A DNA stretch of 63,257 nucleotides, counting the filler, from Licmophora abbreviata (taxonomy: Eukaryota): assembly GCA_900291995.1 (NCBI GenBank). It is 15 parts of 15 records of this genome, joined end to end, with 100 filler letters (N's around TTAATTAATTAA, not from the genome) between each part and the next. Parts side by side here need not be neighbours in the genome. Positions count along the whole stretch, not along the records: positions 56,579 to 59,784 come from OLMU01005166.1; positions 59,885 to 63,257 come from OLMU01005167.1; 13 more parts are not named here. The stretch is one strand, 5' to 3'. Below are positions 1-60,635 of this stretch, one piece after another. Made by a program: the position numbers and the translations under genes. The notes below the pieces were generated by a model. That model was not told where the DNA came from. It saw nothing but the letters and a program-made list of their open reading frames with translations, and ran no database searches. Position 1 is the stretch's first letter, and every line of letters begins with the position of its first letter.

Positions 1-889
1 TATTACCTACCTCAAGTCCAAGTTTGACTACGAGTGGGATCCACACACGGATCTGCACGATCCCAACACTCCCGACCCCAACAAGCTCTATGTTGCAGAA
101 ACTGCAAAAGACGAAGAGGGCGTGGAGAAATTCTACGATCCCATCTTTGGTCCCAGCAATCCTCTCGATACCAGAACCATCGTAGGCTCGGTCGACTCCT
201 ACATGATAGACCCAACCACACGAGACGATACCATGCTCACTCCCTCCTTTCCACCAGGAGACGTTGAAAATGACTTTAATGACAAGGTACGAGACTTTCG
301 CAAGTCTCTTGATATTATTGAAACATACATTGACCCCTACTTGCCAGACAACATGCCTGTACCGAGACACACTGCCAAGTGGCATGGCTACCCCGAACGA
401 GAGACCTATCCGCAAAAGGACTATTCCAACAATCGCTTTACGAAACCGCAGGATCTGACGCCCTTTGACGACTACGACCCGCACAAGGCGCGCAAGTTGG
501 CGGTGCAGTATGCGCGCGCCAAGAATTGTGAGTGGCTGGTAGAGGGAATCAGTTTGGAGCATCACACCAAGGTAAGAGCTCCCTATGAAGAGCATGGGAC
601 GATTGTTGGGACCTTGCGCAAGGGAAGGAGTGATCCAGGGTTGGTGGAACAGATTCAGCCTGCCTTGGGAGTATTGGGCAGTGTGGCAGAGTTGTTGAGT
701 ATTGAGCAGGACACAGTCTTTCGATTCCATTATCACGGTCTCATGAAGAACAAGTTTGGTATGGCAGCATGGACGGAGACGTTGATTCGAGATTGTGGAG
801 TGGAATGTACGGGAGTTGTATTTGAAACGGGATATCGGCGGCGTGATCCGGCCTATGATGGTGGGGATGCGTGGTATGGGCCGTACTAA
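1..889 (+). CDS. Hypothetical protein, 5'-truncated by the window edge
   Basis: The frame of ORF 122..889 stays open back to position 2 (ITYLKSKFDYEWDPHTD...). Composition is protein-like; no family recognised. Confidence 0.7.
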   Translation, partial: ITYLKSKFDYEWDPHTDLHDPNTPDPNKLYVAETAKDEEGVEKFYDPIFGPSNPLDTRTIVGSVDSYMIDPTTRDDTMLTPSFPPGDVENDFNDKVRDFRKSLDIIETYIDPYLPDNMPVPRHTAKWHGYPERETYPQKDYSNNRFTKPQDLTPFDDYDPHKARKLAVQYARAKNCEWLVEGISLEHHTKVRAPYEEHGTIVGTLRKGRSDPGLVEQIQPALGVLGSVAELLSIEQDTVFRFHYHGLMKNKFGMAAWTETLIRDCGVECTGVVFETGYRRRDPAYDGGDAWYGPY

Positions 890-996
890 CCATCGCATGA
901 ATGAAAATTCCTCAATCATAATAGCTGCTCAGCGACTGTAATTCGAAAGAGAACATGTCCTATAGAGTACGCCTTCTCTAGTAGACTAGGCATACA

Positions 997-3497
997 TTAG
1001 ATGCGATCCACATGACGAATGCCAAGGAGATCAAAGCATTCGCGCATGGCCATTGTCGTTGCGCGGCAGAGGAGCAATCGGCTGTTCATCTCGGGGCTGC
1101 CCAATACCTTGCACTGTGTGACAAAGTCGGAGGCTGCAATCGAGAGATTGTACACGTACTCGCATATATGATAGGGGAAGAGATCGTCGAGCGTTACAAC
1201 CAACGTATCTGAAAAAGCTGCAGGTTGAATGCAAGGTTCCGTTCCGATGGATGCGTAATGGCAATGGGCGACTTTTCTGCAATCAACTTGTTCACGTCCA
1301 CGCCGTGAGTCGCAAGAGCCTTCGAGCAGATGCTCTCCAGGCGTGCGTGCGCGTATAATAAGTAAACAGCCGTGTTGCCCTTGGTATCGAGCATCTGATC
1401 GTAGCTGAATTTGTAGTTGGTAGTGGGGTTGCGGCGCAAGTCAAAATACTTGACAGCACCGTAGCCAATCGCTTCTGCCACCTTGTGAACCTCTTCTGGA
1501 GAAATGTTGGCTTTGCCCTCTTCGATACGAGCATTGAGACTGGCTTCCATACGACCGACTGCCTCGTCCAAAAGGTCCACCAGGCGAACCGTATCTCCCG
1601 AACGCGTCTTGAATCGTTTGCCATCTTCTCCCATGACTGTCCCGAAACCAACATGCTCGAGCTTTTGATCCTGAACCCATCCAATCTTGTGAGCCGCGGC
1701 GTAACACATCTTGAAGTGGTCTCCTTGCGAGAAGTCCGTGACGACGATGATCCGCTGGCAGTTGAGGTGACGAAGGCGATGAGATAGCGCAGCCATATCG
1801 GTACTGTCGTAACCAAAGCCCCCATCGCTCTTTTGTAACATTAAAGGGATCTGGAATTTGTCGAGAAAGACACACTTGGCACCTCCCTCTTCGATCGTCA
1901 ACAATCCCGCCTTGTCGAATTCTTGAACAACGGCTGGAATTTTGTCATTGTAAAAGGACTCCCCGAATTCTTCGACCTTAATGTCCAGACGATCGTACAC
2001 TTTCTGAAATTCTTGTCGCGAGACGTCGCACAGGATCTTCCAGATTTCCAGACACTCTTCATCGCCGGACTGGAGCTTCACCACATTCGTCTGCGCGAGC
2101 TTCTTGAAGTCGGGCGATTCGTCGAAACGTCCCTTGGCGCTCTTGTAGAACTCGGTCAAGTCAGTGATGTTTGGCATATTTTCGTGAAAGGTGGGAAATT
2201 CTTCCTTGAGATACTGAATCAGCATACCAAACTGGGTTCCCCAGTCGCCGACGTGGTTCACGCGATGCACGGAATGTCCGACACGCTCCAAGATTCGACA
2301 CATGGCTTCTCCCAGGATGGTACTTCTTAAGTGTCCCACATGCATTTCCTTGGCAATGTTGGGACTCGAGAAATCAACCAGGCAGGTTGCGGGAGTGACC
2401 TGCGGGTTCGGGAGGTGACCAATGTCGTACATGTAATGACTGATGCGACGCTCCAACAAACTGGGTGCGACTCGAACCTGCACAAATCCACGGTCCATTC
2501 TGGGGTCAATGACCACGTCGCTCGCATTCCGCAACACCTCAACGAGCGCATTCGCCACATCGGGAGGACTGCGAATAGTATCTGGCAATGCGTTTGCCTT
2601 TTTCAAATCGGAAAAGAGGCGCATGGCAATACTGCTCTGATAGTCACCATGCTTGGAATCTTTGCACTTGGAAACGAGAGAGTCTGGGAGCTTTCCCTCC
2701 AAAAGTTCCTCCCCAAACAGCTCAACCAGGGCATTGGTGAAGACTTCCTTGATGAGTCCAGCCAGACTGGGATTGTCCAGGTCGACTGGTTTGTTGCCAC
2801 CCCTTGCTGCCGGAAGAACCGAGATGGCTTCCTTGGCATTCGCCAGCGCCGAGGCATGCGCCTCGAGGTACTGAGACACATGCGGGGGCAAGTGATGGCC
2901 TCCCGTCAAACTAGAGAGCGTAGTCACGATACAGATATCGGCCACCGTGGTGTCATGAGCAATCAAGTGAAAGGGGGACCCGCCTCCCTCCGTCAAGAAA
3001 TGTTCGAGATGGCCGAGAGCATTGTGAAGATTGTGCGAGTGACGCAAATGGGTTCGTTCCCATTCGCACCATTCATCTACCTGCATGACTTCTGCCGGGG
3101 AGAGGACAGATTCGGTTCCCAGACAGGATATCGCCTTGGCCATGCTGTTACCGCCCATGACAACGTGCGAGTCGTACACCAGTGCGGGTCCGTGGGCCAA
3201 GGGTAGTTTTTGTTTGGTGGACTTGAGGGGAACCTTGTAGAGCAAGGATGACCAGACAGCCTTGATGGCTGAAATACTTCCTTCTCCTTGAGCATCAGCG
3301 TTGGCTAAAAGAAACTCTGGCTGCTGCTTTGGAGGTGCGGGTACAGCTGCTGGTTGTTCAGTGTTTGACGGCGGGGCAGGACCACCCGCGCGAGAGGCCT
3401 TGGCTGCCTCTTTTTTCTGTTGCTTTTCGGCCATCTTGGCCATCTTCTTCAGCTGTTTCTTCGAAGGGCCCTCTGTTTCATTGATTTCGTTCGCCAT
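997..3497 (-). CDS. RARS: Cytosolic arginyl-tRNA synthetase with Lys-rich and GST-like N-terminal extension; one frameshift near 1212
   Basis: Motifs VDFSSPNIAKEMHVGHLRST, NHVGDWGTQFG, FKTRSG and GNTAVYLLYAHAR. The C-terminal anticodon-binding part (ICEYVYNL...RLLLC...LLGI) lies in ORF 997..1203; one extra T in CTTTTTCAG restores the frame. Confidence 0.96.
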
Positions 3498-4308
3498 GGT
3501 GGTGGATGGACGACCTTCCGGATGGACGAATGATGAAAGGTATGGTACAGTCAATGAGTCTCGTGCTGCCCGTTTCAAAATCAAAATGAAAATGGACGGC
3601 TGTCACCTGTCACTCAAGTTTGTCACTTTCGGCTAGAAAATTTGACTCGCTCGACTAGCGAAGAAGAAACAAGCTCACAGATGACTCAGAACGTGTTTCT
3701 GATACAGCGCCAGAAGTAGAATGTCTCTTTCTTTTGATGTGTTAAACGAATATATCTCATTCAATGCCTCCTTATACCCTTTTGTGTTAATTTCTTATAG
3801 TATAGAAACGCTTTAGCTCATAGGTTGAAGTAAGTGTACTATCTTCAAACCATCCTCTATCATTTGTGGAAATATAGTATTCAAGACGGTAGTTTAGTAC
3901 TCGCGCGCAATACCACTGCGACATGCAGCTTATGACGCGGCACCGTCACCACGCAAGCAGTGCTCCGAAGCGCGCAGATATCGTGGTACTGTCGCCAGCT
4001 TGTATGATTGACTGTCCTTGTCGTCCTTGAAGGACATGCCACGTGAGGGCAGGGCCACCAAGGTGATGGGAGCCACACATAAACGGGTTTAGCCTTCCAC
4101 ATCTCTGAACCTTGAGACTATCGTGTATTCGAAGAAGTGCGATATCACCTTGGCGTGTATATTGAGGAGAAAGCGGCCAGCCAGAGAAGCCACGACAACG
4201 CAGAGAACTGCTTTACTCTACTAGTAGTACCTGGTACTTTTTGGAGTTCGGATCTGAAACAGTCCTTTTTTCAGTCGTTATAAAGAAGACGAAGACACCT
4301 CGACTGCT

Positions 4309-4408
4309 NNNNNNNNNNNNNNNNNNNNNNNNNNNNNNNNNNNNNNNNNNNNTTAATTAATTAANNNNNNNNNNNNNNNNNNNNNNNNNNNNNNNNNNNN
4401 NNNNNNNN
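4309..4408. other. Artificial gap spacer N44-TTAATTAATTAA-N44, first of 14; the others start at 8713, 17185, 18373, 27306, 29100, 32347, 34533, 46680, 49950, 52223, 54443, 56479 and 59785
   Basis: Identical 100-bp structure with stop codons in all six frames. Confidence 0.98.
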
Positions 4409-4454
4409 ACACCTCGACTGCTACTCGGACTCTGACGACTCGACAAGAGCCAGC

Positions 4455-7400
4455 ATGATGGGCAGTAACTCGATCCCGTCGAACAATACCAACCGGAGAA
4501 GGAACATCTTCCCGCATTCGGATTCCCGGTCACATCGCAGCGCCTCTTCCCACCATTCCACTTCATCGTCATCGAAGGAGACCACGAGCGCCGTGTCGCT
4601 GGACGAAGCCTTTAGACGTGTGGGGCATCGACTTAGTCAGAGGGTAGGAGGGGTCAGAGATACGCCGAGGCCGGTGGCGAATCTGTTGGCGGGACAGGCG
4701 ACGTCTGCTTTCTCTGCTCCGAGGAGGGAGTCGCAGGATGCCGCATCTCCGGGGGTCGAAGATACGGTCGTGTCCCCTGCTGCGTCCGTGGCGAATTCCA
4801 CCTCTAGTCCTCATGATGGGGAGGTACGTATTCCTACCGACTTTTCTTGAAACCTGTAAATACACTGTGGAGACTGCGAAGTTCATCATCTCTGACCCAC
4901 TGTCTTCCACCACTCCGCTGTAGGTATTTGATCGATCTCCCAAGGTGGCGAAGACAAGATATACGGATCATGGCAATCATCAGAGGCCTCCAGATCAGGT
5001 GCACGAAAGCATACTGAAGAGGCTCACACAACGAGCGCAAGACACCTACGAAAAGGCGCGGCAGACACCCCAAGATCCACACAAGGAGCCGAAGAAACAT
5101 GTCCCTCCCTCTAACTCAAGTCGCAATGGAGGTTTCGAGGGGACTGCCATGTCGCCACACAGACAAGCGTTATCGCAACTGGCGCTGGATGACGGCACCT
5201 CGAGCACTATGAGTATGGAGCCCGATCCTATAATACGCAAGGACCCACAGGGCACCGTTGACAGCTCACACAAGGGTCTATTGGAAGCTGCACTGGAGCA
5301 ACAAGACCCATCTGGAGATCAGCGGAAACCAGGGAAATGTCTGACATTACCGGAAGAGCCAATGTCGAACGATGGGCTGGACAATTCAGACGGTAATCTC
5401 ATTGTACATCAAGGCGACCATATTGAGGTCCCGCCGGCTCAGGTCACCAACACAATACATGGCGGTCCCGAAACACGAAGCAAATTTGTTGTAATCGAGC
5501 CGCTGGGACAAGGAACTTTCGCCCAGGTTTTCAAGTGTCGTTGTGTTGCGACCGGTGACTTGGTGGCGGTCAAGATTGTCAAGAACAAGCCGGCGTACAC
5601 GCGACAGGCAGCTGTGGAAATTGATGTATTTCGAGTTCTTCGGGAGTCAAATCTGATGGAGAAGAATCATATGGTTCGGCTCATGTGTCACTTTGTCTAC
5701 AAGTCGCATTTGTGTTTGGTATTTGAACTGCTGGGGTTGAATCTCTACGAAGTACTCAAGAAACGCCAGTTTCGGGGCCTCCCGCTGGCGATTGTAAGGA
5801 ATGTAATCCAACAAGCAATCGAGGGTATCAAGGATCTGAGCCAGAAAAGCATTGTTCATTGCGACATCAAGCCCGAGAATATCCTCCTATGCAGCGACGA
5901 GGATGTAGAGGCCATTGTCACTGAGGGAGAGCGCCCAAAGCTTGCCATGGCTAATGACGCCGCTGACTTGGTTTCCGGGGGCAAGTCAGGAACGCCGTCA
6001 ACCGAAGATACTGGTCAGACTAGTGCATCTGATGTCTCGAGTCACTCCTATGAAAGAATAATCAAGTTGATTGATTTTGGTTCAGCTTGCTTCGAAGGAC
6101 ACACGGCGCACACGTACATCCAGTCAAGGTTCTATAGGAGTCCGGAAGTGTTAATTGGACTACCGTACGACTCAGCGATTGACATGTGGTCGCTGGGCTG
6201 TGTGACTGCAGAGCTCTTCTTAGGACTGCCGATTCTTCCTGGTGTTCATGAGCACGATCAGCTTGGGAGAATAAGTGAGATGATTGGCACGTTTCCGGAC
6301 TGGATGATAGAACAGGGGTAAGCTTACCTGCATTTCGCTTTTGTCGCATGTATGTACCATGAATGCGCCTACTCACCGTTGCCGTCGTTCTACCGATACT
6401 TAGGTCCAAGTCATCAAAGTATTTTTTGAAGGAGCTCTCTCGAACGTCCGATGACAAGAAACCATCACAGAATATTGACATACTTCATCGTGAATCTCCG
6501 CCGCCTCCACAGGTTTCATGGCGTCTGAGGACCCTCCATGAATACATCCAGTCCCTGTCAGCCCATGAATTACGAAAGAAAGGTGGTGTGGCAAAATTGG
6601 AGAAACAGCCGACGAATCGTTACTTTAAACGGAAACGGCTAGCAGACATAATTATGCTGCACGGTCAGGCGAGCCCCAACACAAGCAGCGAGGAACTCGG
6701 CCTGTTTGTTCATTTTTTGCTAGGTAAGTTTATCTTGTTGCGCAAATGAGCACCGGTGAAACGAACCGACCCACTCATTTTTTGGTCGCTCCTCGTTTGG
6801 TCAGGAATCTTGCATCCCGACCCCTGGAAGAGATGGACCGCCTACCAGGCATCCATGCATCCGTTCATAACTGGTGGCTCGTCGCATCGGCGCCGAATGG
6901 GAGCCGGATCAGTTGCCACAGGCAGAGAAGTAGGATCCACAGAAGCACATGACTATGACATATATTGGGTCCCTCCTTGGGATCCATCGATCTGCAAACG
7001 CAAGCTTTTGAATGTCCAGAAGACGAGAGAAAAGCAGCAAGCTATGCGGCGGAGTAGTCGAAGCAGCATCGGAAGTCAGTCCCAGGGTATCCCGGACAGG
7101 AGTAGCCGCGGCGCCCAACCGAAGTCGTCAGATTTGGCTACCAGCAGGTAAGGATTGGGACGAGATACTCTTTTGTACCATAGGGATCGTCTTCGTTCTC
7201 ATTATTTATCTCTCCCGTCACCAGGCGCTCTCGTGTGGCTCACATGCGCGACGATGCCATCCTTCGTCGCCAAACCTCGCTCCCAACAGTCCCGCAGCGG
7301 CAGCAAACTATAATTTCCTCTGGAGCAATGCACAACAGCGTTTTCCACTTATCGCAGCAAGGTATGGCAGGTGACCAGGGCATCTCTGCAACTCCGTCTG

Positions 7401-17560: not shown

Positions 17561-18555
17561 CCATAGAAAGATAACAAACGATATGGAAGATGGATGAATG
17601 GGAGGACTACGAATTGCAGCAAGAGGCGCCCAGGAAGAGAGCGACGCTCGAAGATATCCGATAGGGAGAGTTTCGTCGTTGTAAAAACCACCAATGGATC
17701 ACGCTTGGGCATCACGCACGCATCACATCATGCATCACGCAAAAATATCACATCACAGCGCGACACGGAACAATGATACGCACCGGTACTCTGCATTTCG
17801 ATAATTCCAGTGGCAACCGCAATGGAAGAGGCCCAGGATCCTGTCGAGTACTGCAAAGATTTTGGTGGTGGTCTTCCCGCCGAATCCTATGGTCTCTCAG
17901 AGGAATGCGAACAAGAGCTTGAGCATGAATTTGAACATGAAGAAGAAACCGAGTTGTCAATTGCTAGCAGACAAGACCCATACGCTCCGGTTTCTTTTTA
18001 AATCTCAATTCTTTCATTCGCGACAAAGTGTGAAGCATCGCCGCGATTGAATGGACCATGTTCGATTCAACGAGTCCGAACAAAAGATTCTCGCCAAGTC
18101 CCTTCGCCATGTCCCACAGCGACACGTCGTGGTGCAAGAACTCTTGAGAATGCGTGGTCGTCTGAGGCATTTCGATAGGAGTGACCTTGAAACCATCTCG
18201 ACAAAGTTCTATCTGTAAAGTTGCAAATTACGTACTTTGTACGTCGTAAAATAGTAGGTAAGGACTGCAACCTGTCACTGCCTGGTAGAGAGAGAGAGTA
18301 GAGTCAGTCTCGATAAGTCGTTACGAGTGGTATGATAGGTACAATCGCTGTCTTGTACAAAGTCGTAAAACCNNNNNNNNNNNNNNNNNNNNNNNNNNNN
18401 NNNNNNNNNNNNNNNNTTAATTAATTAANNNNNNNNNNNNNNNNNNNNNNNNNNNNNNNNNNNNNNNNNNNNCTGAACGGAGTAGGTACAATCGCTGTCT
18501 TGTACAAAGTCGTAAAACCGGGATTCAGTAAAGAGACGACAAAAGTCCAGGATAC

Positions 18556-23829: not shown

Positions 23830-26337
23830 CTACATCCACCGCTTCAGCAGCTTGTATAGCTCTTCTTCTGCGCCCACTGGAGCTTGAAACTTGTGCTTGC
23901 CTGGAACGACCGTGTCTTCATGAATCTTGGTCGCGAGTCGGGTGCCCATATCGATTGCACGCTTGGCATCGAGCTCTCCTGCCTGAAAGGCACCGCCAAT
24001 TGTAAAAACTTTTCCCGACAGGGCATCAATATCTTTTGAAAACGTTTGCAGGTCATGTTGTTCCAGCTGACCAGCACATAGGATAATGTTGTCCACCTCC
24101 AATACGCGTTCCTTGCCTTCGCGTTCAATGCACAAGTTTCCGTCTTCGTCCACCTTCTTGTACAAGACATTGTTTACCATTTCCACAGCGTTCGACTTGG
24201 ACAAGGTCGCTCGATGGATCCAACCGGTTGTCTTTCCCAAGGTGGCTCCTAGTTTGCCCTTTTTGCGCTGGCACATGACAATCTCACGCTTGGGCGGCCC
24301 CGTCGCTTTGGGTGACACGAGGCCACCGCGATGCCGATTGTTTGGGTCCACACCCCACTCTTCCCAGAACTCTTCAACGCTCACGTCGCTGGGTTTCTTA
24401 TCCGTACCGTCGTGATGAAGAAGGAACTCGGCTACATCGAATCCAATACCACCAGCACCAATCTGAGGGAAAAAGGGGAGCGCGTCAGTTAATGGGACGA
24501 TTGAGGAGAAGTCAGACGTACCTAGCGAGGGCTGACTTACAATGGCCACCTTCTTCCCCACATGTGCGTTGTGCCTGAGCACATCGATATATGACAAAAC
24601 CTTGGGATGATCCAGGCCCGGAATCGGCGGGATCCGGGGATTGACTCCTGTCGCAACAATCCACCTGTCCGTCCCCACCTCTGCTTCCATATCCTTTACG
24701 GTCAGGTTCGTATTAAGCTTCATTTCCACACCGTGCTTGTTCAACATAGTGCGAAAGTATCGGAGCGTTTCATGAAACTCCTCCTTTCCCGGAACACGCT
24801 TTGCCATATTGAACTGCCCACCAATTTCGGCACTGCGATCGTACAACGTGACGGTGTGCCCCATCTGGGCTGCCGTCAAAGCAAACGCGCATCCAGCAGG
24901 CCCTGCGCCAATCACTCCAATCGTCCGCCGCTGATCGACATGCAGCTCGTGAATCTTGAGATTCGTTTCTTGACATGCACGAGGATTTACAAGACAGCTA
25001 GCAGTCTTGGCGACAAAGGCATGATCCAAGCATGCTTGATTGCATGCAATACAGGTATTGATCTCGTCGGTTCGTCCCTCTCGGGACTTGTTGAGAATCT
25101 CCGGGTCTGCCAAGAAAGGTCGCGCCATGGAAACCATGTCCGCTACACCGCTCTTGAGCAAGTCTTCCGCAACATGAGGGCTGTTGATGCGGTTGGTCGC
25201 GACAATCGGAATATCAACGACACCCGCCTCTTTCAAGAGATGAGTCGGTCTCGCAAAAGCCGCCCGTGGAACGGACGTTGCAATAGTGGGCACTCTCGCT
25301 TCGTGCCAGCCAATGCCCGTATTAATCATGGATGCCCCGGCATCCTCTACCGCCCTTGCCATTTCAAGACACTCCTCCCATGACATGCCCTTGTCGACCA
25401 GATCCAATAGACTCAATCGAAAGATAATTATGAAATCGTTGCCTACCGCTTGTCTCGTCTTGCGAATAATCTCCAACGGAAGGCGCATCCTGTTTTCAAA
25501 GTTCCCCCCATACTCATCCGTCCGCTGATTGGTCCGCGTGCACAGAAACTGAGAAATCAAATAACCTTCGCTTCCCATGATTTCGACTCCATCGTAGCCC
25601 GCCTCGCGGGCAAGCTCCGCACAATGAACAAAATCATGAATGGTCGCCTGCAAACCCGCCTTGGTGAGTCCCCTCGCCCGAAAGGGCGAAATGGGCGACT
25701 TGGTATCACTCGCCGACACGGCCAGAGGATGATACCCATACCTCCCCGAATGCAGTATCTGCAAGCAGATCTTGGGCGCCACGTCCGGCCCTCCCACGAG
25801 CGGTACACGACAAGCATGTACGGCTTCCGTCACGAGCTTGTGCTGCAGCATTTCATCCGTCGTAGTCAGCTTGGCAGCAAAGGGTCCCGTCCATCCCTCC
25901 CGATTGGGTGCAATCCCTCCCGTCACCAGGAGGCCCACACCACCACGGGCACGTTCGACCATGTACTCGGCCATGGCCGCAAGATGGTGCTCCTTGTTTG
26001 TATGCCCCCCTACGACTGGCAAAAGTAAACTGGGAATGGAATGTCCCTCCAATCCAGTATGCATGGAGCCCATCAAGACGCGGTTCGGAAGGACGATGCC
26101 ATTGCTTAGTTCCAACGGTGTAAAGAGCTTTGGAAAGTGAGGATTGGTGTCGTTGCGCTGTAAATCATGCGCCAGCTCTTCCCCTGATGCAGTAGTAGCA
26201 GTTGTAGTGCTAGTAGCAGAACTATGGCTTCGACTAGCCGTATTCGTACTATTAGCAGTAGTACTCCGAGTACTACGGAAAGACGCAAGGCGATGGGGAT
26301 GGCGCTGCAAGGAGCGGCGGACAGCCTGGAATGTCAT
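23830..26337 (-). CDS. fadH: 2,4-dienoyl-CoA reductase (FadH-type, FMN/4Fe-4S/FAD) with mitochondrial-type presequence
   Basis: Motifs NRVLMGSMHTGLE, GYDGVEIMGSEGYLI, NTCIACNQACLDH, CLVNPRAC, GAGPAG and LGKTTGWIHR. In-frame 78-nt intron at 24463-24540. Confidence 0.95.
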   Translation of the reverse strand: MTFQAVRRSLQRHPHRLASFRSTRSTTANSTNTASRSHSSATSTTTATTASGEELAHDLQRNDTNPHFPKLFTPLELSNGIVLPNRVLMGSMHTGLEGHSIPSLLLPVVGGHTNKEHHLAAMAEYMVERARGGVGLLVTGGIAPNREGWTGPFAAKLTTTDEMLQHKLVTEAVHACRVPLVGGPDVAPKICLQILHSGRYGYHPLAVSASDTKSPISPFRARGLTKAGLQATIHDFVHCAELAREAGYDGVEIMGSEGYLISQFLCTRTNQRTDEYGGNFENRMRLPLEIIRKTRQAVGNDFIIIFRLSLLDLVDKGMSWEECLEMARAVEDAGASMINTGIGWHEARVPTIATSVPRAAFARPTHLLKEAGVVDIPIVATNRINSPHVAEDLLKSGVADMVSMARPFLADPEILNKSREGRTDEINTCIACNQACLDHAFVAKTASCLVNPRACQETNLKIHELHVDQRRTIGVIGAGPAGCAFALTAAQMGHTVTLYDRSAEIGGQFNMAKRVPGKEEFHETLRYFRTMLNKHGVEMKLNTNLTVKDMEAEVGTDRWIVATGVNPRIPPIPGLDHPKVLSYIDVLRHNAHVGKKVAIVSQPSLGTSDFSSIVPLTDALPFFPQIGAGGIGFDVAEFLLHHDGTDKKPSDVSVEEFWEEWGVDPNNRHRGGLVSPKATGPPKREIVMCQRKKGKLGATLGKTTGWIHRATLSKSNAVEMVNNVLYKKVDEDGNLCIEREGKERVLEVDNIILCAGQLEQHDLQTFSKDIDALSGKVFTIGGAFQAGELDAKRAIDMGTRLATKIHEDTVVPGKHKFQAPVGAEEELYKLLKRWM

Positions 26338-26719
26338 TTTTGTTACGTTTGCTATCGCTACTCGACTGCGATGCTTGGACGACGAGAGAATGACGAGGGA
26401 AGGCAATGATTCGATTCGGACTTTTGTGTCTGGGTGTCACTGGCCATCATCGATGCGCTCGGCTTCGTTGACATCATCTTGCGAACCCCGCAATCTTCAA
26501 TCTTCCTCCTCAGTATCATACTACGGTTCGCGCGTCACGAACAGAGTGGGCCAGTCGGAGGAGTCGAGTCAGCCAACTTCTGCCGACGTAAAAGCAAGAG
26601 CTTGACACGACGAGTGATGCCGACCTCCTAGATGGATACCAGTACTTTAACTGTCTCACAAGTGCACCAATCTGACTCACTCCCTCTCTCTCCACCCCCC
26701 AAATGTAGCTACCTAGTAG

Positions 26720-27859
26720 CTACCCATTCGACTTCAACCACCCTTGCTGTTTTGCATGTTGAAACATACGGACAATCTCATGTCGTTCCTGTACCGTCAC
26801 ATCTGGATGCCACACGTCTACCAGTAACACGACTCGTGTTTCCTCCGTCCGATTAAATGCTTCGTGCTCATAGCTGTCATCCAACACCAACGCCTTGCCT
26901 TCCCGCCACGTTGTCGTGGACGGTCCTACTCGAAGGCCAACACTCTCACTCTCGGATGACGGCACACTCAATGGCAAATGCACACGCAAGCGAAAATTAA
27001 TAGGCCCCGTGTGAGGACGAATCGAGGAAGAGGGATGCAAGGTGGAAAAGAAGCAATAGCCAAAAGGCGTGCCTTCAAAGAGCTCGTCGCGGAGTCCTTG
27101 TAGAATCTTGGAGGACTCTGGAAAGTCTTTGACAAAGTCGGGCCGTATCTGGCCCTTGCGTAAATAAGAATGCCAGTCCCAAGAGCCACTGTGCAGACTG
27201 TGTTCCGCAGCAGTAGAACTAGTAGATGGTGATGAAGCAGTAGTAGAAGCACTACTACTACTACTAGTAGTACTACTAGTAGTAGTATAGTCGGACGGTA
27301 TAGTGNNNNNNNNNNNNNNNNNNNNNNNNNNNNNNNNNNNNNNNNNNNNTTAATTAATTAANNNNNNNNNNNNNNNNNNNNNNNNNNNNNNNNNNNNNNN
27401 NNNNNCCGCAGCAGTAGAACTAGTAGATGGTGAAGAAGCAGTAGTAGAAGCACTACTACTACTACTAGTAGTAGTAGTATAGTCGGACGGTATAGTGCCG
27501 GAAACACGCTTGTACTCTTGTTGAAAGAGCGACACGTGACTTTCCAAGTACTCCACAACGTGTGTCACCATGGGGTCTTGATAGGCGACTCGGTTTGTGT
27601 TGCTGTTGGCATCGTAGGATGTCCATAAGGGCAACGAGCGCAAGCCTGGTAAATGCATGAGCGACGGTGATGGGCGGTGTAAACCGGTTTGAAGTAACGA
27701 AGGTCCCTGGACGACGGTTGACGATAGGAAAGTAGCAGCAGCGTCATTTTTGGAGTTGGGAAAGGTGGACATGCATCTTGTTGTTGTTGTTGGTGAAGAG
27801 ACAAGACAACGCAAGCGTGCTCTTGCAGTGGAAAGGACTGACCGCTGCATCCTCACCAT
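26720..27859 (-). CDS. Aspartyl/asparaginyl beta-hydroxylase family 2OG-Fe(II) oxygenase; spans a gap
   Basis: Motifs FFSTLHPSSSIRPHTGPINFRLRVHLPL, WREGKALVLDDSYEHEA and VDVWHPD. The N-terminal part lies before the gap, with overlapping sequence on both sides. Confidence 0.88.
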
Positions 27860-28913: not shown

Positions 28914-29486
28914 GGTGGTCGAACGATGATTCAGTAAGAGAGTATAGAGACAGGAGGGATCAGTCGAAGAGTGTCGTTGTTGTTGTTGTGCAATGTGGTG
29001 GGATCAATGCTACTTCGATGCCGCCCTGTTATCAAAACGCATCGGTTTGCAAATATTGTGAGTGGGATTCAAACGTGTGGATGCTTTATATTGTTTATTN
29101 NNNNNNNNNNNNNNNNNNNNNNNNNNNNNNNNNNNNNNNNNNNTTAATTAATTAANNNNNNNNNNNNNNNNNNNNNNNNNNNNNNNNNNNNNNNNNNNNG
29201 ATAGCCGAACATTATATATCTTTAATTAATATTAAATTCTCAATATTTAGAAATATATCAAAAATTGGCATCGAGAGCGTTGAGTCTTGCTTCGTGCTCT
29301 CTAGCCGACAATTTTGGCCTGAAAGACTTCGAATTCCACGTCATCATCCAGCCCGCAGTGCATGGCGCCAAATCGAAATCGATGGCTCTCCTTGACCCAA
29401 AATTAGGAAGAAGGACGAAACGGCCATCAACAACAAGTCTAATAACAAGCTTGCTCCGTTCCATTCGTCCCGTTGCTATAGATATC

Positions 29487-32004: not shown

Positions 32005-32994
32005 ATGATGTTCAAGGTTGCTGCCGTCTTGCTGAGCTTGACGACGTTGACTGGAGCTTACAAACGCCGTGACGCGAACGAAGCGACGAGAGACCGCCAT
32101 CTCACCAAGTTGGCTCGCCAGAACCAGGCTCTTCTTCTTGAGAATATGCCCCAAAAGGAAGGTAACGCCTTTTGGCATCGTTTTCTCGAAGAGGACGGAA
32201 GCCTCCCTCCAACAACGCCTGCGACCCCGGCTCCCGTGACGCCTGCGACTCCGGCCCCTGTTGCTGGTGCTACCCCAGCGCCTGTAGTTACCCCTGCCCC
32301 AGTGACTCCAGCGCCTGTGACACCCGCTCCAGTGGCACCCGCTCCTNNNNNNNNNNNNNNNNNNNNNNNNNNNNNNNNNNNNNNNNNNNNTTAATTAATT
32401 AANNNNNNNNNNNNNNNNNNNNNNNNNNNNNNNNNNNNNNNNNNNNCTGTGTGTTTGATGTAAGAACCAGTCACTTTGTCGAAAGTTTTGTTGATGTGCT
32501 ATTTATGCTAAACTCACACATTTGACCTTTCATATTTTCTTTCTGTACAGGACAATGTGTACACGGACCATGTTATTGTAACGAACTACAACGGGACCGA
32601 TCAACAGAACAACGACCCGACTTTCGTTGAGCTCACTATCAAGGAGACCACTTTCTCAGGCAACACCATTACTGGCCCGGTCGTGTTCCCGTCAATCGTC
32701 GAGACGGCATTGCATACGACATCAACCGTCCAGAACTCGTGCTTCACTGGAAATGCTGCCACTGGCGATGCGACGGCATTGGACTCGTCCACTGTTGCCA
32801 ACCTCAACGGTGATGCTGCCTACTCCAACTTGTTTGGCAGCGGCAACACGGTTGGCACCCCGTCTCAGTGTCCTGATATCGCTGATGTCACATTCGATGA
32901 TTCTCTCTCGACGGTCCTTGATACTATGTGTATTGCTTTCGATGCTCCATCATGTCCACTTGGACGTCGTATGCTGCGCGCGGGGGGCCAGTAG
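32005..32994 (+). CDS. Secreted protein with TPAPV repeats and beta-helix-like C-terminus; spans a gap
   Basis: Signal peptide, RFLEE processing-like site and TPAP repeats before the gap. After it, an exon with FSGN/CFTGN-type repeats. Confidence 0.6.
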
Positions 32995-34212: not shown

Positions 34213-34676
34213 GGCACTGGAATGTTTGAGCGGCCGTCAGGCGTATGAAATACAGTTCGGTGGCCTCCTTTCGTTCACCCCTGATGAACAATGAAAGCGA
34301 GGTCGAGCGTGTGATGTGAAACTACCTACTCGTACGTGCGGCCTCGAAACCATCATTTTCCCCCGCGCCTCGATTTTCTACATAAACCTCAGCTCGGGAT
34401 ATTATTTCTGTGCTGGCGCGTGTATTTCTATTTAAGATACGCCTTTATTATGTATGCTAAAAGGCCGGCCGCCTCCCTCTCAACCGAAAAAATCCAAAAC
34501 TTTTAGACCGGTTGCGGCATGATAGCAGGTACNNNNNNNNNNNNNNNNNNNNNNNNNNNNNNNNNNNNNNNNNNNNTTAATTAATTAANNNNNNNNNNNN
34601 NNNNNNNNNNNNNNNNNNNNNNNNNNNNNNNNCGCACGCTGCGACAACGTGTCTCTCGAAAATCTCTGAAGAAAGA

Positions 34677-46490: not shown

Positions 46491-46898
46491 ACTACCGTAA
46501 TAACAATTTGAAACGGAGACAAACACGAGAGAGTAGAAAAGTTGATGAACGGAGCCCCACTGCCGTTACACCATGGAAGCTGAATCCAGAATCCAGCCTT
46601 GCGACAAAATCCATGAGTTCAAGCTGGGAGAGACGGTACTACCGAGTACCGGGCATCTCACAGTATCCAGCACGAAAATNNNNNNNNNNNNNNNNNNNNN
46701 NNNNNNNNNNNNNNNNNNNNNNNTTAATTAATTAANNNNNNNNNNNNNNNNNNNNNNNNNNNNNNNNNNNNNNNNNNNNGTCATGACACCGGCGCCAAAG
46801 TGCACAAGTCCGCGAGTACAACAAAAATTGCGTTGAAGAGATCTTCACAAAATCATCGTAATCTCTCACTCTTTTTCGAGCGAGGCCCAATCATCACC

Positions 46899-49949: not shown

Positions 49950-50049
49950 NNNNNNNNNNNNNNNNNNNNNNNNNNNNNNNNNNNNNNNNNNNNTTAATTA
50001 ATTAANNNNNNNNNNNNNNNNNNNNNNNNNNNNNNNNNNNNNNNNNNNN

Positions 50050-52105: not shown

Positions 52106-54896
52106 ATGCTGTCGTCGTGCTACCCGACCAGATTTTCCCTGTTGCAGCAGCTGCTGCTTGCTGTCCTCGTCATAGTTGGAAGCGCTTCGGCACAACGCTG
52201 TGTCATGACGGATACAGAACGGNNNNNNNNNNNNNNNNNNNNNNNNNNNNNNNNNNNNNNNNNNNNTTAATTAATTAANNNNNNNNNNNNNNNNNNNNNN
52301 NNNNNNNNNNNNNNNNNNNNNNTGCCCAATCGCGGAAATGAACGCCCCCACAGAAGTCGAACCTGGTGGTTTCGCAAGATGCGGGTTTAGCACACTCAAC
52401 GGTCGGCAGAACCCATACTTCTTCAAAGTCTTTCCAGGGAGTCTGGACAAGCTCGTCATCTTCTTTCAAGGGGGCGGGCTCTGCACCTCAGAGCTCACCT
52501 GCGATCTTGCACTTCTGTCGGGGAACATTATTCTGGAACCTCAATCACCAGACGAAGGTATCTTTGATGATTCCAATGCGGCAAATCCTTTCAAGGATTG
52601 GACCAGAGTGCACGTGGGCTATTGTACGGGTGATTTACACAGTGGCCTCCGCAGCGATGGAGATTTCCACTTCAAGGGACAGGCCAATGTCAACGCCGTA
52701 TTGACTTGGACGTTTGAAAACGTCCCCACTGTGAGTAGGCTCTTTATAGGAGGTTGCTCGGCAGGGTCGATTGGAGCCCAGCAGTGGTCTCAACGCATCC
52801 TACAGCAGTATCATCGAGAGGGTATAGAAGCACCGATAACGTCGACTGCGTACGATTCCAGTGTTGGACTGATCGGAGACACGGCTGCTCTCTTCCTAAC
52901 GGATACGTGGAACTCTTGCTCTGACATCGCGTTTGGCTGGACACAGAGGCAGTACGAACGTTGCTTGACTGGCGAGTTTGCTCTCGAAGACGCCCAGCTT
53001 GCTGTCCAAGCTGCATACCCAGACGTCATTTTTTCGTTTGTCAACTACAAGGACGACCCATACTATTACAGCGTCTTCTACTGTGTGGTCTTGGGTTTGT
53101 TCAGTCCAGCATCCTGTCGACAGTCTACCGTGTATCGTTGGACACAAGATCGACTCCTGGACTACACTGCAGCCGCGGGTAGTCCCTCCAGTAACGTCTT
53201 GACATATTGGATAAACCGAGATGGACACTGCGTGTTGCCATTTAACCGCCTCTACAACCGAATGGCCCGAGAAGTGCTTGTGGGGATGACTGAGTTGGCG
53301 ACACGAACACGGAGCACCACCATTGAGGCGTCGTGTGTGGAAGCAACTCCACCATCGTCGGATAAGGACTACAGTTGTGACCCGATACTGAGCGATGCGA
53401 AGTTTATCGGGGGCGCACAGCCGCCAAGCACGGCGGCACCTGCGGAGCGTGCAACGTTTGCTCCCTCTGGTTTTCCCTCGGCCTCGCCGTCGGTTGCCGG
53501 TTTGACCTCTCCGTCTAGCATCCCTTCCGAATTGCCATCGGCTGCCAGTTTGACCTCTCCCTCGAGTGTTCCTTCGGCCTCGGCCTCACCGACGTTTACC
53601 AGTTTAACCTCACCATCAAGTGTTCCCTCGGAGTCGCCGTCGGTTGCTACTTTAACCTCCCCGACTAGTGTTCCTTCAGATTCGCCGTCGGTTGTTAGCT
53701 TGACCTCTCCGACGAGTGTTCCTTCGACCTCGCCGTCGGTTACTATGTTGACCTCTCCGTCGAGTGTTCCCTCGGCCTCGCCATCGGCTGCCAGCTTGAC
53801 CTCTCCGTCTAGCGTTCCTTCCGACTCGCCATCGGCTGCCAGTTTGACCTCTCCATCGAGTGGTCCATCGGCCTCGCCGTCAGTGGCCAGCTTGACCTCT
53901 CCGTCGATTGTTCCTTCGGCCTCGCCGTCGGTTGCCAGTTTGACCTCTCCGTCTAGCGTTCCTTCCGACTCGCCATCAGCTGCCAGTTTGACCTCTCCAT
54001 CGAGTGGTCCATCGGCATCGCCGTCAGTGGCCAGCTTGACCTCTCCGTCGAGTGTTCCCTCGGCCTCGCCATCGGCTGCCAGCTTGACCTCTCCGTCTAG
54101 CGTTCCCTCGGAGTCGCCGTCGGTTGCCAGTTTGATCTCTCCATCGAGTGTTCCTTCCGATTCGCCATCAGTGGCTAGCTTGACCTCTCTGTCGAGTGTT
54201 CCCTCGGCCTCGCCATCGGCTGCCAGCTTGACCTCTCCGTCTCGGGTTCCCTCGGTATCGCCATCGGTTGCCAATTTGTCCTCTCCATCGACTGTTCCCT
54301 CGGAGTCGCCGTCGGTTGCCAGCTTGACCTCTCCATCGAGTGGTTCATCCGCCTCGCCGTCGGCTGCCAGCTTGACATCTGCGTCTGGGGTGCCTTCGGT
54401 ATCGCCGTCTGTCGCCAGTCTGCCCTCTCCGTCGAGTATTCCNNNNNNNNNNNNNNNNNNNNNNNNNNNNNNNNNNNNNNNNNNNNTTAATTAATTAANN
54501 NNNNNNNNNNNNNNNNNNNNNNNNNNNNNNNNNNNNNNNNNNCCGTCTGTCGCCAGTCTGCCCTCTCCGTCGAGTATTCCCTCGGCGTCGCCGTCGGCTG
54601 CCAGGTTGAGCTCTCCGTCTAGCGTTCCGTCGGCGTCGCCTTCGGTTACGTCTCCGTCTAGTGTCCCATCAGCCTCACCGTCGGTTGCAAGTTCGACTTC
54701 TCCATCACTTGCACCTTTAGCATCACCCTCAGTTGTACAGAATTTCTCATTGCCTGACACCGCACAGCAGTTTGTGCGGCAGCAACCGCCTACTGATGCA
54801 ACTTCTAATGCATCTACGGTCGGAAATATTGCCCCTGCGGTCATCATCCTGTTGTCCACGATAAACACGTGTCTTTTGTTCGCCTACTTGTGGTGA
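52106..54896 (+). CDS. Pectin acetylesterase/Notum-family esterase with long Ser/Pro/Thr stalk and GPI-like tail; spans two gaps
   Basis: Signal peptide, motifs FFQGGGLC, NPFKDW, YCTGDLHSG, GCSAGS and GHC, repeat stalk, hydrophobic C-terminus. Confidence 0.85.
53480..54720 (+). repeat. Coding 48-bp tandem repeat (SPSVASLTSPSSVPSA), about 20 or more copies
   Basis: Seen directly in DNA and protein. Confidence 0.95.
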
Positions 54897-55836: not shown

Positions 55837-57250
55837 TCAGCTTGCAATGGCAAATTTCAGTTCATTCTTCTTGACAGCACGGTTGATAGCCAAGAGAACC
55901 TGTTGTCGATTGTCGTGGTACATGTCTCCCACCGGTTTGATTAGGAAATGCGCATTGACAATCACTTCCAAATGATCGTCTTGGTAGCTCGTCCAGTGGA
56001 CTCGAAAGGGTCGACTGCCATCTGTAATGAGCATGGGACAAGATTCTTGTATTTCCGTTCGGATGTCTGTCAGTAGCTTTGGTATCTTGTCCACATCCTC
56101 ATATTCAAACCGCAACGTCTGTTGCACTTGACATCGATGAATCCGCGACAGATTGCTCACTTGCTGGCTGGCTAAATCACTGTTCGGCACCGCGAGTTTC
56201 GTATCATCCGGCTGTCGCAAGATCGTTTCCATCCACCCCATCTTGACAACCGTCCCCGAAATACCATTGCCAAATCTCACCGAGTCTCCCTCGTAAATTC
56301 GATCGCTAGCGCTCAGCATCAATCCATTCAACAAGTTGGACGCCAACCCTTGACCTGCCAAACTGACCATCAAGGTTCCAATGCTACCAAACGCGAATAT
56401 GCTCTTTCCGGCGAAACCCAACTCAACACTGAGTACGTCCATGACAAAGGTCAAGACGACTGCCACAATTGCCGCATTNNNNNNNNNNNNNNNNNNNNNN
56501 NNNNNNNNNNNNNNNNNNNNNNTTAATTAATTAANNNNNNNNNNNNNNNNNNNNNNNNNNNNNNNNNNNNNNNNNNNNACCTTGACACGACCCAGCTGAT
56601 CCACTTGCCCTTGCAATACGACCTCCATCAAGACGTGTTTCTTGTAAACTGCCACCTTTTTTGCAATCCATGCCGTATATACCACCTTGGCAAAGGCTTG
56701 GGGTATTTCAAGTATGTGTGGAAACGCGAATCCCAAACACACCAGTACAATCTTGACAATGTCTACCGCGTAGACAAGAACTGCAATCTTGGCGATTTCG
56801 GACAGAAGTTCGGCAAGATGATAGGTAATGGTCTTTTGAAATGGCCTGTCGTCCGTTCCCCGCACACGCTTTATTTTATAGGGATATCGCAAGAGTGGCA
56901 CAGTCCCCCACCCCAACACACCAATCAGTACCAAGTCTTGCCACTGCGTCACCATGAGTACGTTCTGGAGTATCAACTTTGGCCTTGTCGGGAGTAATGA
57001 TAAGTTTCTGCAGAGTAGGGAGAATATTGCCCGCCAGGACCGAATTGTGGACGATTTCATGCAATTCGTGCACCACAAACTCTTCGGCATCGTGGAGCGT
57101 TTCCTTGATGCCGTTGGTGAGTTTTTCGGCCGACTCGACGACATCGTGCATGGACAAGTGCATCTTCTTGTTGTTGGCGTGGGAGACGGCAACGAGAGAG
57201 GCGAAAAGACAGAGAACGAGAGGGGCAGACGACCACCGATGAAGTCTCAT
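55837..57250 (-). CDS. MscS-family mechanosensitive channel with signal peptide; frameshift near 56979; spans a gap
   Basis: Motifs SLAGQGLASNLLNG, GDSVRFG...GTVVKMGWMET and VPNS...VSNLSR. Confidence 0.88.
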
Positions 57251-57615
57251 TGTCTTTTCTTTCGCTGTTTCTCAGCTGAGCGGATGGTGAGCGCGGGATC
57301 TTTCGTTTGTTCTATTGCTTCCGACTCCAACAGCGAAGTTCAGAGTGGGAACGGCGGATCTTTTGTCTTTTGACGCGAGAGAGGTGCGCGCCAAATTCAA
57401 CACCGCGACGAAGCTGTGAGAGTGAACCGCTGACGTACGTACGTACTTTTCGGGACTCGAGCTGCACTCGTGACTGACGATGGATCTTGCGATTTTTAAA
57501 AAAGATCGAACGAAAACTGAAGTGATGATGATGATGACAGTGATGAAAGGTGTCGGATAATCTCTCTCCCAACCACTATTTCTGCTTCTTAGTTCCTCTT
57601 TGACACAATCTCAGT

Positions 57616-59676
57616 ATGTCAGTAGCAGCTCCTCCTCGCCTGATTGCCCGAACCTCTCTCAAACACGGTTTGGCACGACTTCGCGCTTCCGCCGACGACG
57701 CCACTACCCACCGTACTACTACTATTACCCGTCTGACAGAAATTTCGCACCGCAGTCCGACGCGTTTGATTCCAATTTCCAGCAGCGTCGTGTCGAGATC
57801 AGGGGCAGCGCTTTGTGCTGTGTCCAACTACGGTGGGGGCATGCTGCAAGGCGATTCGTCGTCATTGACAATTCAATGCGATGCGCACGCAACACTCAGT
57901 GTTGTGACCCAGGGGCCGACCAGAATCTATCAACAAAAAAGCAAAACGAGTGGTGGCGAGGCAACGAGTACCAGTCAGTCATCCTCTTCTCTCTTTCCAA
58001 GTACGCCGGAATCGTCGACATGCCATGCTACCATTCAAGCGACCATTGACGAGCACGGTCTGCTGGTGATCGCACCCGATCCCTGTGTCGCTTTTCGGGG
58101 AGCTAGAATTGAGCAAAATGTGCAATTGCAGGTTCTTCAGGAATCTGCCAGTGTCGTTTGCATCGATTGGTGGAGTGCTGGTCGGATCCACAGTCGCGAT
58201 CTTCAGTCTCGCGAGAGGTGGGAGTTCGAGCATTTGACATCCCGAACCACCTTGATAGACCGCGACGAGCGACCACTCGTAACGGACGCTGTCTCGCTAG
58301 ATCAAAGGGGAAACGGTGTAAAAAAGACAGATTCTTTTGGATTTGGAGATCACATTCATGCCTTTGCTTCGATACTTTTACATGGACCCCAGGCGCAACT
58401 CGTGGCGAAGCAGTGTCAACTCTTATCCCAGCAGCTTGCCGCACAGCACACGCATGTCAAACAACCCCAAGGGGATTCGATTGATAACGAAGTTTTGCAC
58501 AACACAATGATAGAGCTACCACTTCTGGCGGGACATGTCTGGATGGGTGTAAGTCCCATAGTGTGTCAAACTTCCTCGAAGGATGACGACGAACATGACA
58601 ATGAGCCCGCTGCTACTACCTACATTGTTCGATTGACGACTTGTGGCAACGAAGATATGTATCACATGCTACATGCATGCTTGTTGCCGCTCGCACCCAC
58701 GTGCGGCATTGAAATATACAAGGACCGGATTTCGGCAGCCTATCCGGGGAAAATAAGAGAACCTTCTTCGGTCAACGTATCAGCAACGAGTGATATACCT
58801 TCTTCCATGCTTAATACGGGCACCAAAAGCTTTCTATCGAAACACAAAAAGGTCAACGGTCACCCTACGTCGCAGCACACATGGTTATCGTATATGCTGG
58901 CCGATTCCGCCTTTCCTGTCGGTGGATTCGCCCATTCGGCTGGGATTGAAGCGGCGGCACAGTTGGGCGTATGGAATAAATCCAAAACTACGACCAGCCC
59001 GATTTTGTCCGTGGAGAGCTACTTGCGCGCAGCAGCACGATCGGCCGTACAGCTGCAAGTGCCATTTGTTTTGGCGGGGCATGACGTAGGAGTTAGAAGC
59101 ACGTCAGTGGAAGCATCGTTTGAGATATGGAAAGATCGACACCACTACATCCACGCATCCTTGGTTTCCAATGCTCCCGGGTGCCAGGCATCCCTGGAAC
59201 AGGGCGCCAACCTACTCCGCGTGGCCCTTCGTTGGTTGAACTCCATCGAGACGCGAGGAGTCAAAGATGGAATCAATCTGCTACATCGGCTTCAACAGGG
59301 CGTGTTGAGTGGAGAGTTGCCGCACGGAACTCACATGGCTCCTCTGTTTGGTTTGGTGGGGGGAATTTTGGAGTTGGATGAAGCTGAAACGGGCCGCTTG
59401 TTCGGATTTTGTCTTGCACGTGACATGGCGTCAGCAGCGGTGCGTCTGAACCTTGTTGGACCGTTGGAAAACGTGTCATTGCTATACAGACTACAAGAGG
59501 CGGTGGAGATCGGTCTGGGTGCGGTCAGTTCTCTGATCGACGACGAGCAGCAGAAGCGCGAGGATCACCAGTACGATATCTCGAACCTGATCAAGCGAGC
59601 GGCGACATGTGCGCCAATCACAGAGACAATACATCCCTGCCAAGAGCTCTTGGCTGTGAGACTCTTTCGCTCATAG
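57616..59676 (+). CDS. ureDF: Urease accessory UreD-UreF fusion protein
   Basis: UreD motifs SPTRL, NYGGGMLQGD, TQGPTRIY, PDPCVAF and SAGR...ERWEF. UreF motifs LADSAFPVGGFAHSAGIEAA, DMASAAVRLNLVGP and RLFRS*. Single uninterrupted ORF. Confidence 0.9.
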   Translation: MSVAAPPRLIARTSLKHGLARLRASADDATTHRTTTITRLTEISHRSPTRLIPISSSVVSRSGAALCAVSNYGGGMLQGDSSSLTIQCDAHATLSVVTQGPTRIYQQKSKTSGGEATSTSQSSSSLFPSTPESSTCHATIQATIDEHGLLVIAPDPCVAFRGARIEQNVQLQVLQESASVVCIDWWSAGRIHSRDLQSRERWEFEHLTSRTTLIDRDERPLVTDAVSLDQRGNGVKKTDSFGFGDHIHAFASILLHGPQAQLVAKQCQLLSQQLAAQHTHVKQPQGDSIDNEVLHNTMIELPLLAGHVWMGVSPIVCQTSSKDDDEHDNEPAATTYIVRLTTCGNEDMYHMLHACLLPLAPTCGIEIYKDRISAAYPGKIREPSSVNVSATSDIPSSMLNTGTKSFLSKHKKVNGHPTSQHTWLSYMLADSAFPVGGFAHSAGIEAAAQLGVWNKSKTTTSPILSVESYLRAAARSAVQLQVPFVLAGHDVGVRSTSVEASFEIWKDRHHYIHASLVSNAPGCQASLEQGANLLRVALRWLNSIETRGVKDGINLLHRLQQGVLSGELPHGTHMAPLFGLVGGILELDEAETGRLFGFCLARDMASAAVRLNLVGPLENVSLLYRLQEAVEIGLGAVSSLIDDEQQKREDHQYDISNLIKRAATCAPITETIHPCQELLAVRLFRS

Positions 59677-59738
59677 CGTAGAGCCAAACAAAGCAGTCAC
59701 CCGACAAAAGCACGAAAGGATTTCACATCAAAACTGTT

Positions 59739-60635
59739 CTACTGTATGACTTGCGTCCCTATTGTACGCCGATAGTGCTCCAGGNNNNNNNNNNNNNNNN
59801 NNNNNNNNNNNNNNNNNNNNNNNNNNNNTTAATTAATTAANNNNNNNNNNNNNNNNNNNNNNNNNNNNNNNNNNNNNNNNNNNNCGACTCCGTGATTGTG
59901 CTTGACCGACGCCAGCATGGTAGGCCCCTCCTCCCCTCTCATGGTCTTGGCATCGCGCTTCATGACATCCAGGTCAGCACCAACTGCCTCCGCAAGATCG
60001 ATCTTGTTAATTATAAGCAAGTCACTTTGAGTGATACCAGGTCCCCCTTTGCGCGGAATCTTGTCACCACCCGCAACATCGATCACGTACAGTGTCAAAT
60101 CCGCAAGCTCCCGCGAAAAGTTGGCGGCCAAGTTGTCGCCTCCTGATTCGCAAAGCAACAGCGGCGGAGTGCTAGCGGACTTCTGAATCGTTCGTGTTAA
60201 AGTCTCTAGAGCATTCAAATTCGCACTGACATCTTCTCGTATAGCCGCATGCGGACAACCACCCGTCTCAACCGCCAATATCCGTGATTTCGGCAATGCA
60301 TCGGCTCGCAGCAAGAAGTCCCGGTCTTCTTGCGTGAAAATATCGTTCGTGACAACTCCCAGTTGTATATCTGGATGGTGGATTCGAAACGCACGACACA
60401 GCTCCAGGACGAGGGCGCTCTTGCCCGAGCCGACCGGCCCGCCGACGCCGACTGTGAAGCCTCGAATTTCATAGTCAGATCGCACCGGAGGACCTGTCGC
60501 TGAGTACCGACCAGGTCCGGCGTAGGAATAATGAGAGTGACGAGGAAGTAGCGCACTCGCCATGTACTTAATCCGAGCTTTTGCAACAGAAGCAGTACGG
60601 CAAGCGACAGGGAGAAGCAGTGGCCGATGAAGCAT
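59739..60635 (-). CDS. ureG: Urease accessory GTPase UreG; spans a gap
   Basis: Motifs [37 protein letters not shown] and [27 protein letters not shown]. Probable C-terminus [14 protein letters not shown] beyond the gap (stop 59739-59741). Confidence 0.95.

Follow-up and report, generated by a model that had tools for sequence, protein, structure and literature searches.

At positions 57616–60635 of a 63,257-nucleotide stretch of DNA from the Licmophora abbreviata assembly GCA_900291995.1, the whole of which is referred to here as the window, are two urease-maturation genes lying tail to tail. On the plus strand is ureDF, a single open reading frame (ORF) in which a UreD (UreH) domain is followed by a UreF domain, and convergent with it on the minus strand is ureG. 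The window is eukaryotic in character, gene-dense and almost without introns. The locus spans two of the pieces from which the window is joined, 56579–59784 and 59885 to the window end, with the artificial spacer between them falling inside ureG (Table 1).

An in-frame stop lies four codons ahead of the ureDF ATG, with no other ATG between them, and the encoded protein aligns over its full length, from the first methionine to the terminal ...RLFRS, with 19 fused homologues; in this 20-sequence alignment it keeps all 73 of the 73 invariant columns. Hidden Markov models of both Pfam families match the ORF above their cut-offs, UreD (PF01774) with an E value of 7.6e-33 (114.8 bits, cut-off 27) and UreF (PF01730) with an E value of 2.8e-12 (47.6 bits, cut-off 23.3). 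Run against solved structures, a profile of the fused family finds Helicobacter pylori UreH (E value of 2.8e-12) and UreF (E values of 1.4e-06 to 6.7e-05). By sequence, ureDF is thus assigned at the gene level to UreD, to UreF and to the algal class of UreD–UreF fusions.

An AlphaFold2 model of the protein built from the same alignment (mean predicted local distance difference test, pLDDT, of 78.3; predicted template modelling score, pTM, of 0.83) comprises a β-rich N-terminal domain, a disordered stretch at residues 377–418 and a helical C-terminal domain. The pTM suggests that the two domains pack against each other as one unit. All nine Foldseek matches with E ≤ 0.001 are UreH/UreD or UreF chains (8HC1, 3SF5, 4HI0 and 8HCN), with template modelling scores on the target, TM(target), of 0.64–0.76. 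The modelled UreD domain resembles 8HC1_C, 3SF5_B, 4HI0_B and 8HCN_D (probability of 1.00, TM(target) of 0.71–0.76), and the all-helical UreF domain resembles 3SF5_C, 4HI0_A, 8HC1_D and 6JC4_A (TM(target) of 0.64–0.76). Between the two domains, the linker differs in length and sequence across the alignment. Inserted into the UreD domain of the window are a Ser/Thr-rich segment modelled with low confidence (residues 108–137; 57937–58026) and five residues (188–192; 58177–58191) ahead of a conserved ERW.

The product of ureG carries four motifs that we take to be the P-loop, the Cys-Pro-His metal motif, ESGGDNL and NKxD. The GGCPH, ESGGDNL and NKID segments align with solved UreG structures, of which H. 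pylori 4HI0_E (E value of 8.1e-61) and Klebsiella 5XKT_A (E value of 3.6e-59) are matched by the protein, and the P-loop is kept. Judged by these family features, the minus-strand gene is UreG, a G3E GTPase. The UreG of the window is extended at its N terminus by about 60 residues, among them a conserved H-Y-S-Y-x-G-P-G at residues 35–42 (60510–60533, minus strand), and the motif HY[ST]Y..PG is common to the relatives P0030, P0032, P0034, P0059 and P0070. No histidine-rich tract is present in the extension; some relatives have a histidine-rich C-terminal tail instead (P0095, P0059 and the UreG of metagenome locus L002, described below). The first 30 or so residues, basic and without acidic residues, could be a targeting peptide.

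The window is composed of 15 pieces, 1.1–12 kb long and not ordered by size, with a 100-bp spacer, N44 + TTAATTAATTAA + N44, repeated identically at all 14 joins. The 12-mer TTAATTAATTAA occurs 14 times in the window and 0 times in 100 window shuffles, and the spacers create stops in all six frames. As the spacers are all identical and artificial, their length says nothing about the true gap, and each junction needs evidence of its own. At the junction within ureG, the reading frame is cut after ...SVKHNHGV at one piece end, and 14 C-terminal residues and a stop are found on the ureDF piece. The closest UreG relatives, P0064 (90% identity) and P0030 (82%), end in ...SVKHNEGV-DEIKDFI-LEHYEKAIKS and ...SVKHKEGV-AEIEDFI-LEHYEKAIQ..., respectively; since both read GV, seven residues and then LEHYEKAI, about seven codons are missing from the ureG of the window. 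The flanking bases fit as well: base 59885 is C, giving a minus-strand G in the first codon position as in the Asp or Ala codon of the relatives, and base 59784 is G, giving a minus-strand C in the third codon position as in their ATC isoleucine codon. With ureG split in register, end bases that fit and the same layout in two spacer-free metagenome loci (L004 and L002), the adjacency of ureDF and ureG is real and the genes are convergent. Matching 57500–59784 are 11 contigs of 151–289 bp from four DNA runs, 10 of them at ≥99% identity; none extends as far as the piece end, crosses the gap or covers the linker from end to end, and no loose ends were seen. Marine metagenome runs contain small contigs at ≥99% identity. 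Among the sequencing runs listed none is of RNA, and the best DNA runs contain a 0.06–0.21 share of the sampled words.

The original prediction had placed at this locus one 686-residue ORF carrying UreD and then UreF, a linker at about 58750–58870, and a convergent ureG with its stop at 59739, about 62 bp from that of ureDF, and had argued from the ureG C terminus on the ureDF side of the gap that the adjacency is real. The Pfam matches, the disordered stretch at 58744–58869, the stop codon at 59741–59739, the 62 bp at 59677–59738 and the register shared with P0064 and P0030 bear out each of these points.

Table 1 Coordinates of the ureDF–ureG locus, of the spacers in the window and of the two related loci with linked UreG
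Feature	Position	Strand	Description
ureDF gene	57616..59676	+	Single 686-codon ORF plus stop, no intron needed
UreD (UreH) domain	57652..58743	+	Residues 13–376; Pfam core residues 70–272 (57823–58431)
Disordered linker	58744..58869	+	Residues 377–418, pLDDT <50 in the AlphaFold2 model
UreF domain	58870..59673	+	Residues 419–686; Pfam core residues 465–627 (59008–59496)
Intergenic spacer between convergent stop codons	59677..59738		62 bp
ureG, last 14 codons and stop	59739..59783	-	Codons 59783..59742, stop 59741..59739; on the ureDF piece
Artificial 100-bp spacer	59785..59884		N44 + TTAATTAATTAA + N44, in place of about 19 missing bases
ureG, first 250 codons	59886..60635	-	Pfam PF02492 cobW/HypB/UreG, E value 1.7e-32
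ureG motif, P-loop GPVGSGKS	60417–60440	-	
ureG motif, CPH	60249–60257	-	
ureG motif, ESGGDNL	60129–60149	-	
ureG motif, NKID	59997–60008	-	
Spacer sites 1–7	4309–4408, 8713–8812, 17185–17284, 18373–18472, 27306–27405, 29100–29199, 32347–32446		
Spacer sites 8–14	34533–34632, 46680–46779, 49950–50049, 52223–52322, 54443–54542, 56479–56578, 59785–59884		
L004 UreDF	55..2097	+	
L004 UreG	2172..2996	-	74 bp between stops
L002 UreDF	1483..3645	+	
L002 EF-hand gene	3686..4531	-	
L002 UreG	4548..5492	-	
L002 single-chain urease	Start from 5784	+	

The UreD–UreF fusion is not new: it is widespread and already annotated in diatoms and their relatives, though never studied in its own right. Both Pfam domains are present in all 29 homologues returned by a word-indexed search, which include Pseudo-nitzschia multiseries model 243105 and several Joint Genome Institute (JGI) ‘UreH/UreF’ proteins, and a cluster look-up adds the fused protein of Nitzschia sp. 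Nitz4 (P005809). At E ≤ 1e-30, an exhaustive profile search matched 372 proteins, each representing a 50%-identity cluster; about 80 of the best 150 of these (hand count) are full fusions, defined by a profile match in one stretch from position ≤118 to position ≥601. In two published studies, ‘URED/F’ is given as one gene of Thalassiosira in a metatranscriptome analysis (PMC6787086), and Pelagomonas calceolata is described as having ‘one UreD-UreF’ and two UreG (PMC12054182). The diatom and pelagophyte fusions have in common with ureDF the UreD-then-UreF order, a single ORF of about 600–750 residues, end-to-end alignment and the 73 invariant residues, but their identity to it is only 30–44%, the window protein lies on a long branch, and at the loci nearest to the named diatom fusions UreG is not adjacent.

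Linkage of the fusion with UreG was surveyed in 79 related metagenome loci, comprising 26 fused, 27 unfused and 26 partial loci (21 matching UreF alone, 2 matching UreD alone and 3 that are unclassified or cut); among the fused loci, at least three pairs look like one sequence sampled twice (L006/L007, L011/L012 and L021/L023). All 26 fusions are collinear, UreD then UreF. Of the 18 with 1 kb or more of sequence beyond UreDF, 2 (L002 and L004) have UreG downstream; of the 13 with 1 kb or more on the upstream side, none has UreG there. Both linked loci are GC-rich (59–66%), and none of the fused loci with a best match in the Pseudo-nitzschia clade is linked to UreG. On four gene-sized related contigs (L005, L016, L019 and L020), checked for a poly(A) tail as a sign of a single transcript, none was present.

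The tail-to-tail pairing of ureDF with ureG is therefore rare and apparently undescribed, a small new point: no description of the adjacency in diatoms was found in the literature searched, supplements not being covered. As the original prediction had allowed, the fusion is already annotated in other stramenopiles, in the JGI proteins, model 243105 and the Nitz4 protein, and it is named in the two studies cited above. Its novelty had been made to depend on fusion and linkage not being documented across diatoms; the fusion is known, whereas the linkage is not described and, in the comparison of synteny across relatives that had been proposed, is not general. The claim that the whole accessory machinery is encoded in the 3-kb cluster was overstated; Pelagomonas is reported to have two UreG genes (PMC12054182).

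A second kind of linkage is seen at the 27 unfused loci (L028, L029–L037, L039–L041, L043–L051, L053, L056–L058 and L061), where a minus-strand UreG and a plus-strand single-chain urease are followed by separate UreF and UreD, beside typically eukaryotic genes; UreG is present in 10 of the 10 with 6 kb of upstream sequence. This green-alga-type cluster, referred to here as the L028 type, is, like the window, a eukaryotic linkage of urease-maturation genes. It differs in having UreF and UreD separate, in F-then-D order and beside urease, where the window has a D-then-F fusion without urease nearby. Shared by the L028 type and L002 is a UreG divergent from urease: in L002 (4548–7025), UreG and the single-chain urease are head to head, about 290 bp apart. 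In L028 itself (5935–7782), UreF and UreD are in the same frame with one stop codon (6736–6738) between them, and in L039 and L061 the UreF and UreD ORFs overlap by a few bases.

The host is called diatom-like on the basis of an arginyl-tRNA synthetase gene elsewhere in the window (1197–3602) and of the UreG tree. Among the 120 matches listed for the synthetase, the named ones are all diatoms, at about 63–68% identity, and comprise Asterionellopsis-type entries of the Marine Microbial Eukaryote Transcriptome Sequencing Project (MMETSP), Fragilaria, Seminavis, Nitzschia, Pseudo-nitzschia and Thalassiosira. In a tree of 123 UreG proteins, from which P0031 was excluded as an obvious tandem duplicate model, the window protein groups with P0030 and P0064 (support of 100), and this group sits within a 65-row clade (support of 98) that includes every named diatom and excludes UreG from L002 and L004. 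In the UreDF tree, L002 and L004 belong to a 9-row clade distinct from a 15-row clade with Pseudo-nitzschia.

Taken together, these observations indicate that the locus very probably serves urease maturation, is intact and belongs to the nuclear genome of a diatom-like alga. It encodes UreD and UreF as a single polypeptide with a disordered linker of about 42 residues and, from the convergent ureG beside it, the GTPase UreG. The closest structural reference is the set of H. pylori UreH/UreF/UreG and UreFD/urease complexes (PDB 3SF5, 4HI0 and 8HC1; PMC3792862 and PMC10121161). These contain the same three protein families and folds, and the GGCPH and GTPase motifs of UreG align with those of the window; in H. 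pylori, however, each of the three is a polypeptide of its own, from an operon that also includes UreE, whereas in the window two are fused and no UreE is in view, and the window UreD and UreF are only about 13–16% identical in sequence to H. pylori UreH and UreF.

Formation of a UreDFG activation complex is predicted from homology to 4HI0 and 8HC1. By analogy with the H. pylori UreFD/urease complex, the UreD domain would dock on apo-urease, and the UreF domain would dimerise with another UreF and bring in a UreG dimer. The GTPase is likely to hold nickel at its Cys-Pro-His motif and, upon GTP hydrolysis, would pass it through UreF and UreD into the urease active site. Through the fusion, the two scaffold proteins are kept close together and in a 1:1 ratio. 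The ureDF and ureG genes would be expected to be co-expressed.

The plant URED, UREF and UREG genes are generally unlinked. In Arabidopsis the same three accessory functions, apparently without UreE, are encoded by three separate genes (Witte et al. 2005, cited in PMC5993020), unlike the arrangement in the window.

The tail-to-tail ureG is most likely what remains of a former cluster of urease genes. Tentatively, the ureDF/ureG pair would be a relic of an ancestral ochrophyte cluster of which L002, with ureDF, a reversed ureG and a divergent urease, is the fuller form; the head-to-head UreG/urease core is common to L002 and to loci of the L028 type, from small green algae. A relic is considered more likely than a regulatory device, because one promoter cannot serve both of two convergent genes and the arrangement is missing from most relatives.

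A functional role for the tight pairing, in which ureDF and ureG would be co-regulated through overlap of their 3′ ends or a common chromatin domain, is nonetheless the best surviving of the other explanations, although we think it unlikely. With 62 bp available for two 3′ ends, transcripts of ureDF and ureG probably run into one another or terminate within a very short distance, and with stops 62 bp apart in the window and 74 bp apart in L004, the 3′ untranslated regions must either overlap or be very short. Immediate neighbours from one pathway are improbable by chance, and the two lineages with this layout are separate in the UreG tree. Yet the pairing is dispensable, being absent from 16 of the 18 fused loci with enough downstream sequence, an EF-hand gene intervenes between ureDF and ureG in L002, and convergent genes have separate promoters.

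Less probable still is a fusion at the gene level only, with the polypeptide cut in the linker (residues 377–418) and separate UreD and UreF acting as they do in plants and bacteria. Being long, disordered and little conserved, the linker is the kind of site at which processing can occur, but nothing points to a cleavage site; retention of the fusion in about 80 of the best 150 cluster representatives (hand count) suggests that the covalent link is tolerated or useful, and the pTM of 0.83 suggests that the modelled domains pack as one unit. That the adjacency is an artefact, with a spacer joining unrelated contigs and ureG lying elsewhere in the genome, is very improbable. In its favour are the make-up of the window, 15 pieces with the same artificial spacer at all 14 joins, and that no public contig bridging the gap at 59785–59884 was found. 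Against it, the ureG frame breaks off at the end of one piece and is taken up again, as the C terminus, at the end of the other in the right strand and register, its stop falls where the relatives end, LEHY occurs only twice in the six frames of the 63-kb window, and L004 and L002 carry the matching layout without a spacer.

Several observations weigh against reading the locus as an intact urease-maturation locus in which ureG is a relic of a cluster. No urease gene was found in the 63-kb window by tblastn with two urease queries (best E value of 2.9). The window is thus not a complete eukaryotic urease cluster of the L002 or L028 type, there being no adjacent urease structural gene, and in the 2.6 kb beyond ureG the ORFs have no significant Pfam match (best E value of 0.086, below the cut-off). 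The idea of a relic cluster has two related loci behind it, L002 and L004, and the window UreDF sits at a fork between the 9-row and 15-row clades that the tree does not resolve. The branch leading to the protein is long, at 1.81 changes per column where the median is 0.28, and the protein has ≤44% identity to its homologues, so that some change of function is possible; the long branch and the inserts in the UreD domain together suggest that this copy has evolved fast.

For marine phytoplankton, urea is among the major sources of nitrogen, and these helper proteins are required for urease to be loaded with nickel. A natural covalent UreD–UreF scaffold could be a handy reagent for structures of the eukaryotic activation complex, a value tempered by the fusion being already widespread and annotated. 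The pairing of ureDF with ureG, seen in the lineage of the window and one other, opens no long-standing question and is a modest clue to the ancestral arrangement of urease genes. Were the pair indeed a relic, the nickel–urease system would have evolved in eukaryotes as one linked unit that was later scattered in most diatoms, and the lineage of the window would be among the few still showing the linkage.

Elsewhere in the window, minus-strand ORFs at 55840–56478 and 56579–57246 run open into the spacer at 56479–56578 from both sides. The left ORF contains an MscS β-domain (MS_channel, Pfam E value of 7.1e-15), and no supporting Pfam match for an MscS-like channel was found in the right one; there is a weak hint that this spacer may split a second gene, for such a channel. 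Unrelated to the urease finding is an 868-residue ORF on the minus strand (23833–26436), in which an Old-Yellow-Enzyme-type flavin mononucleotide (FMN) oxidoreductase domain is combined with a pyridine-nucleotide-disulphide oxidoreductase domain in a layout resembling that of 2,4-dienoyl-CoA reductase.

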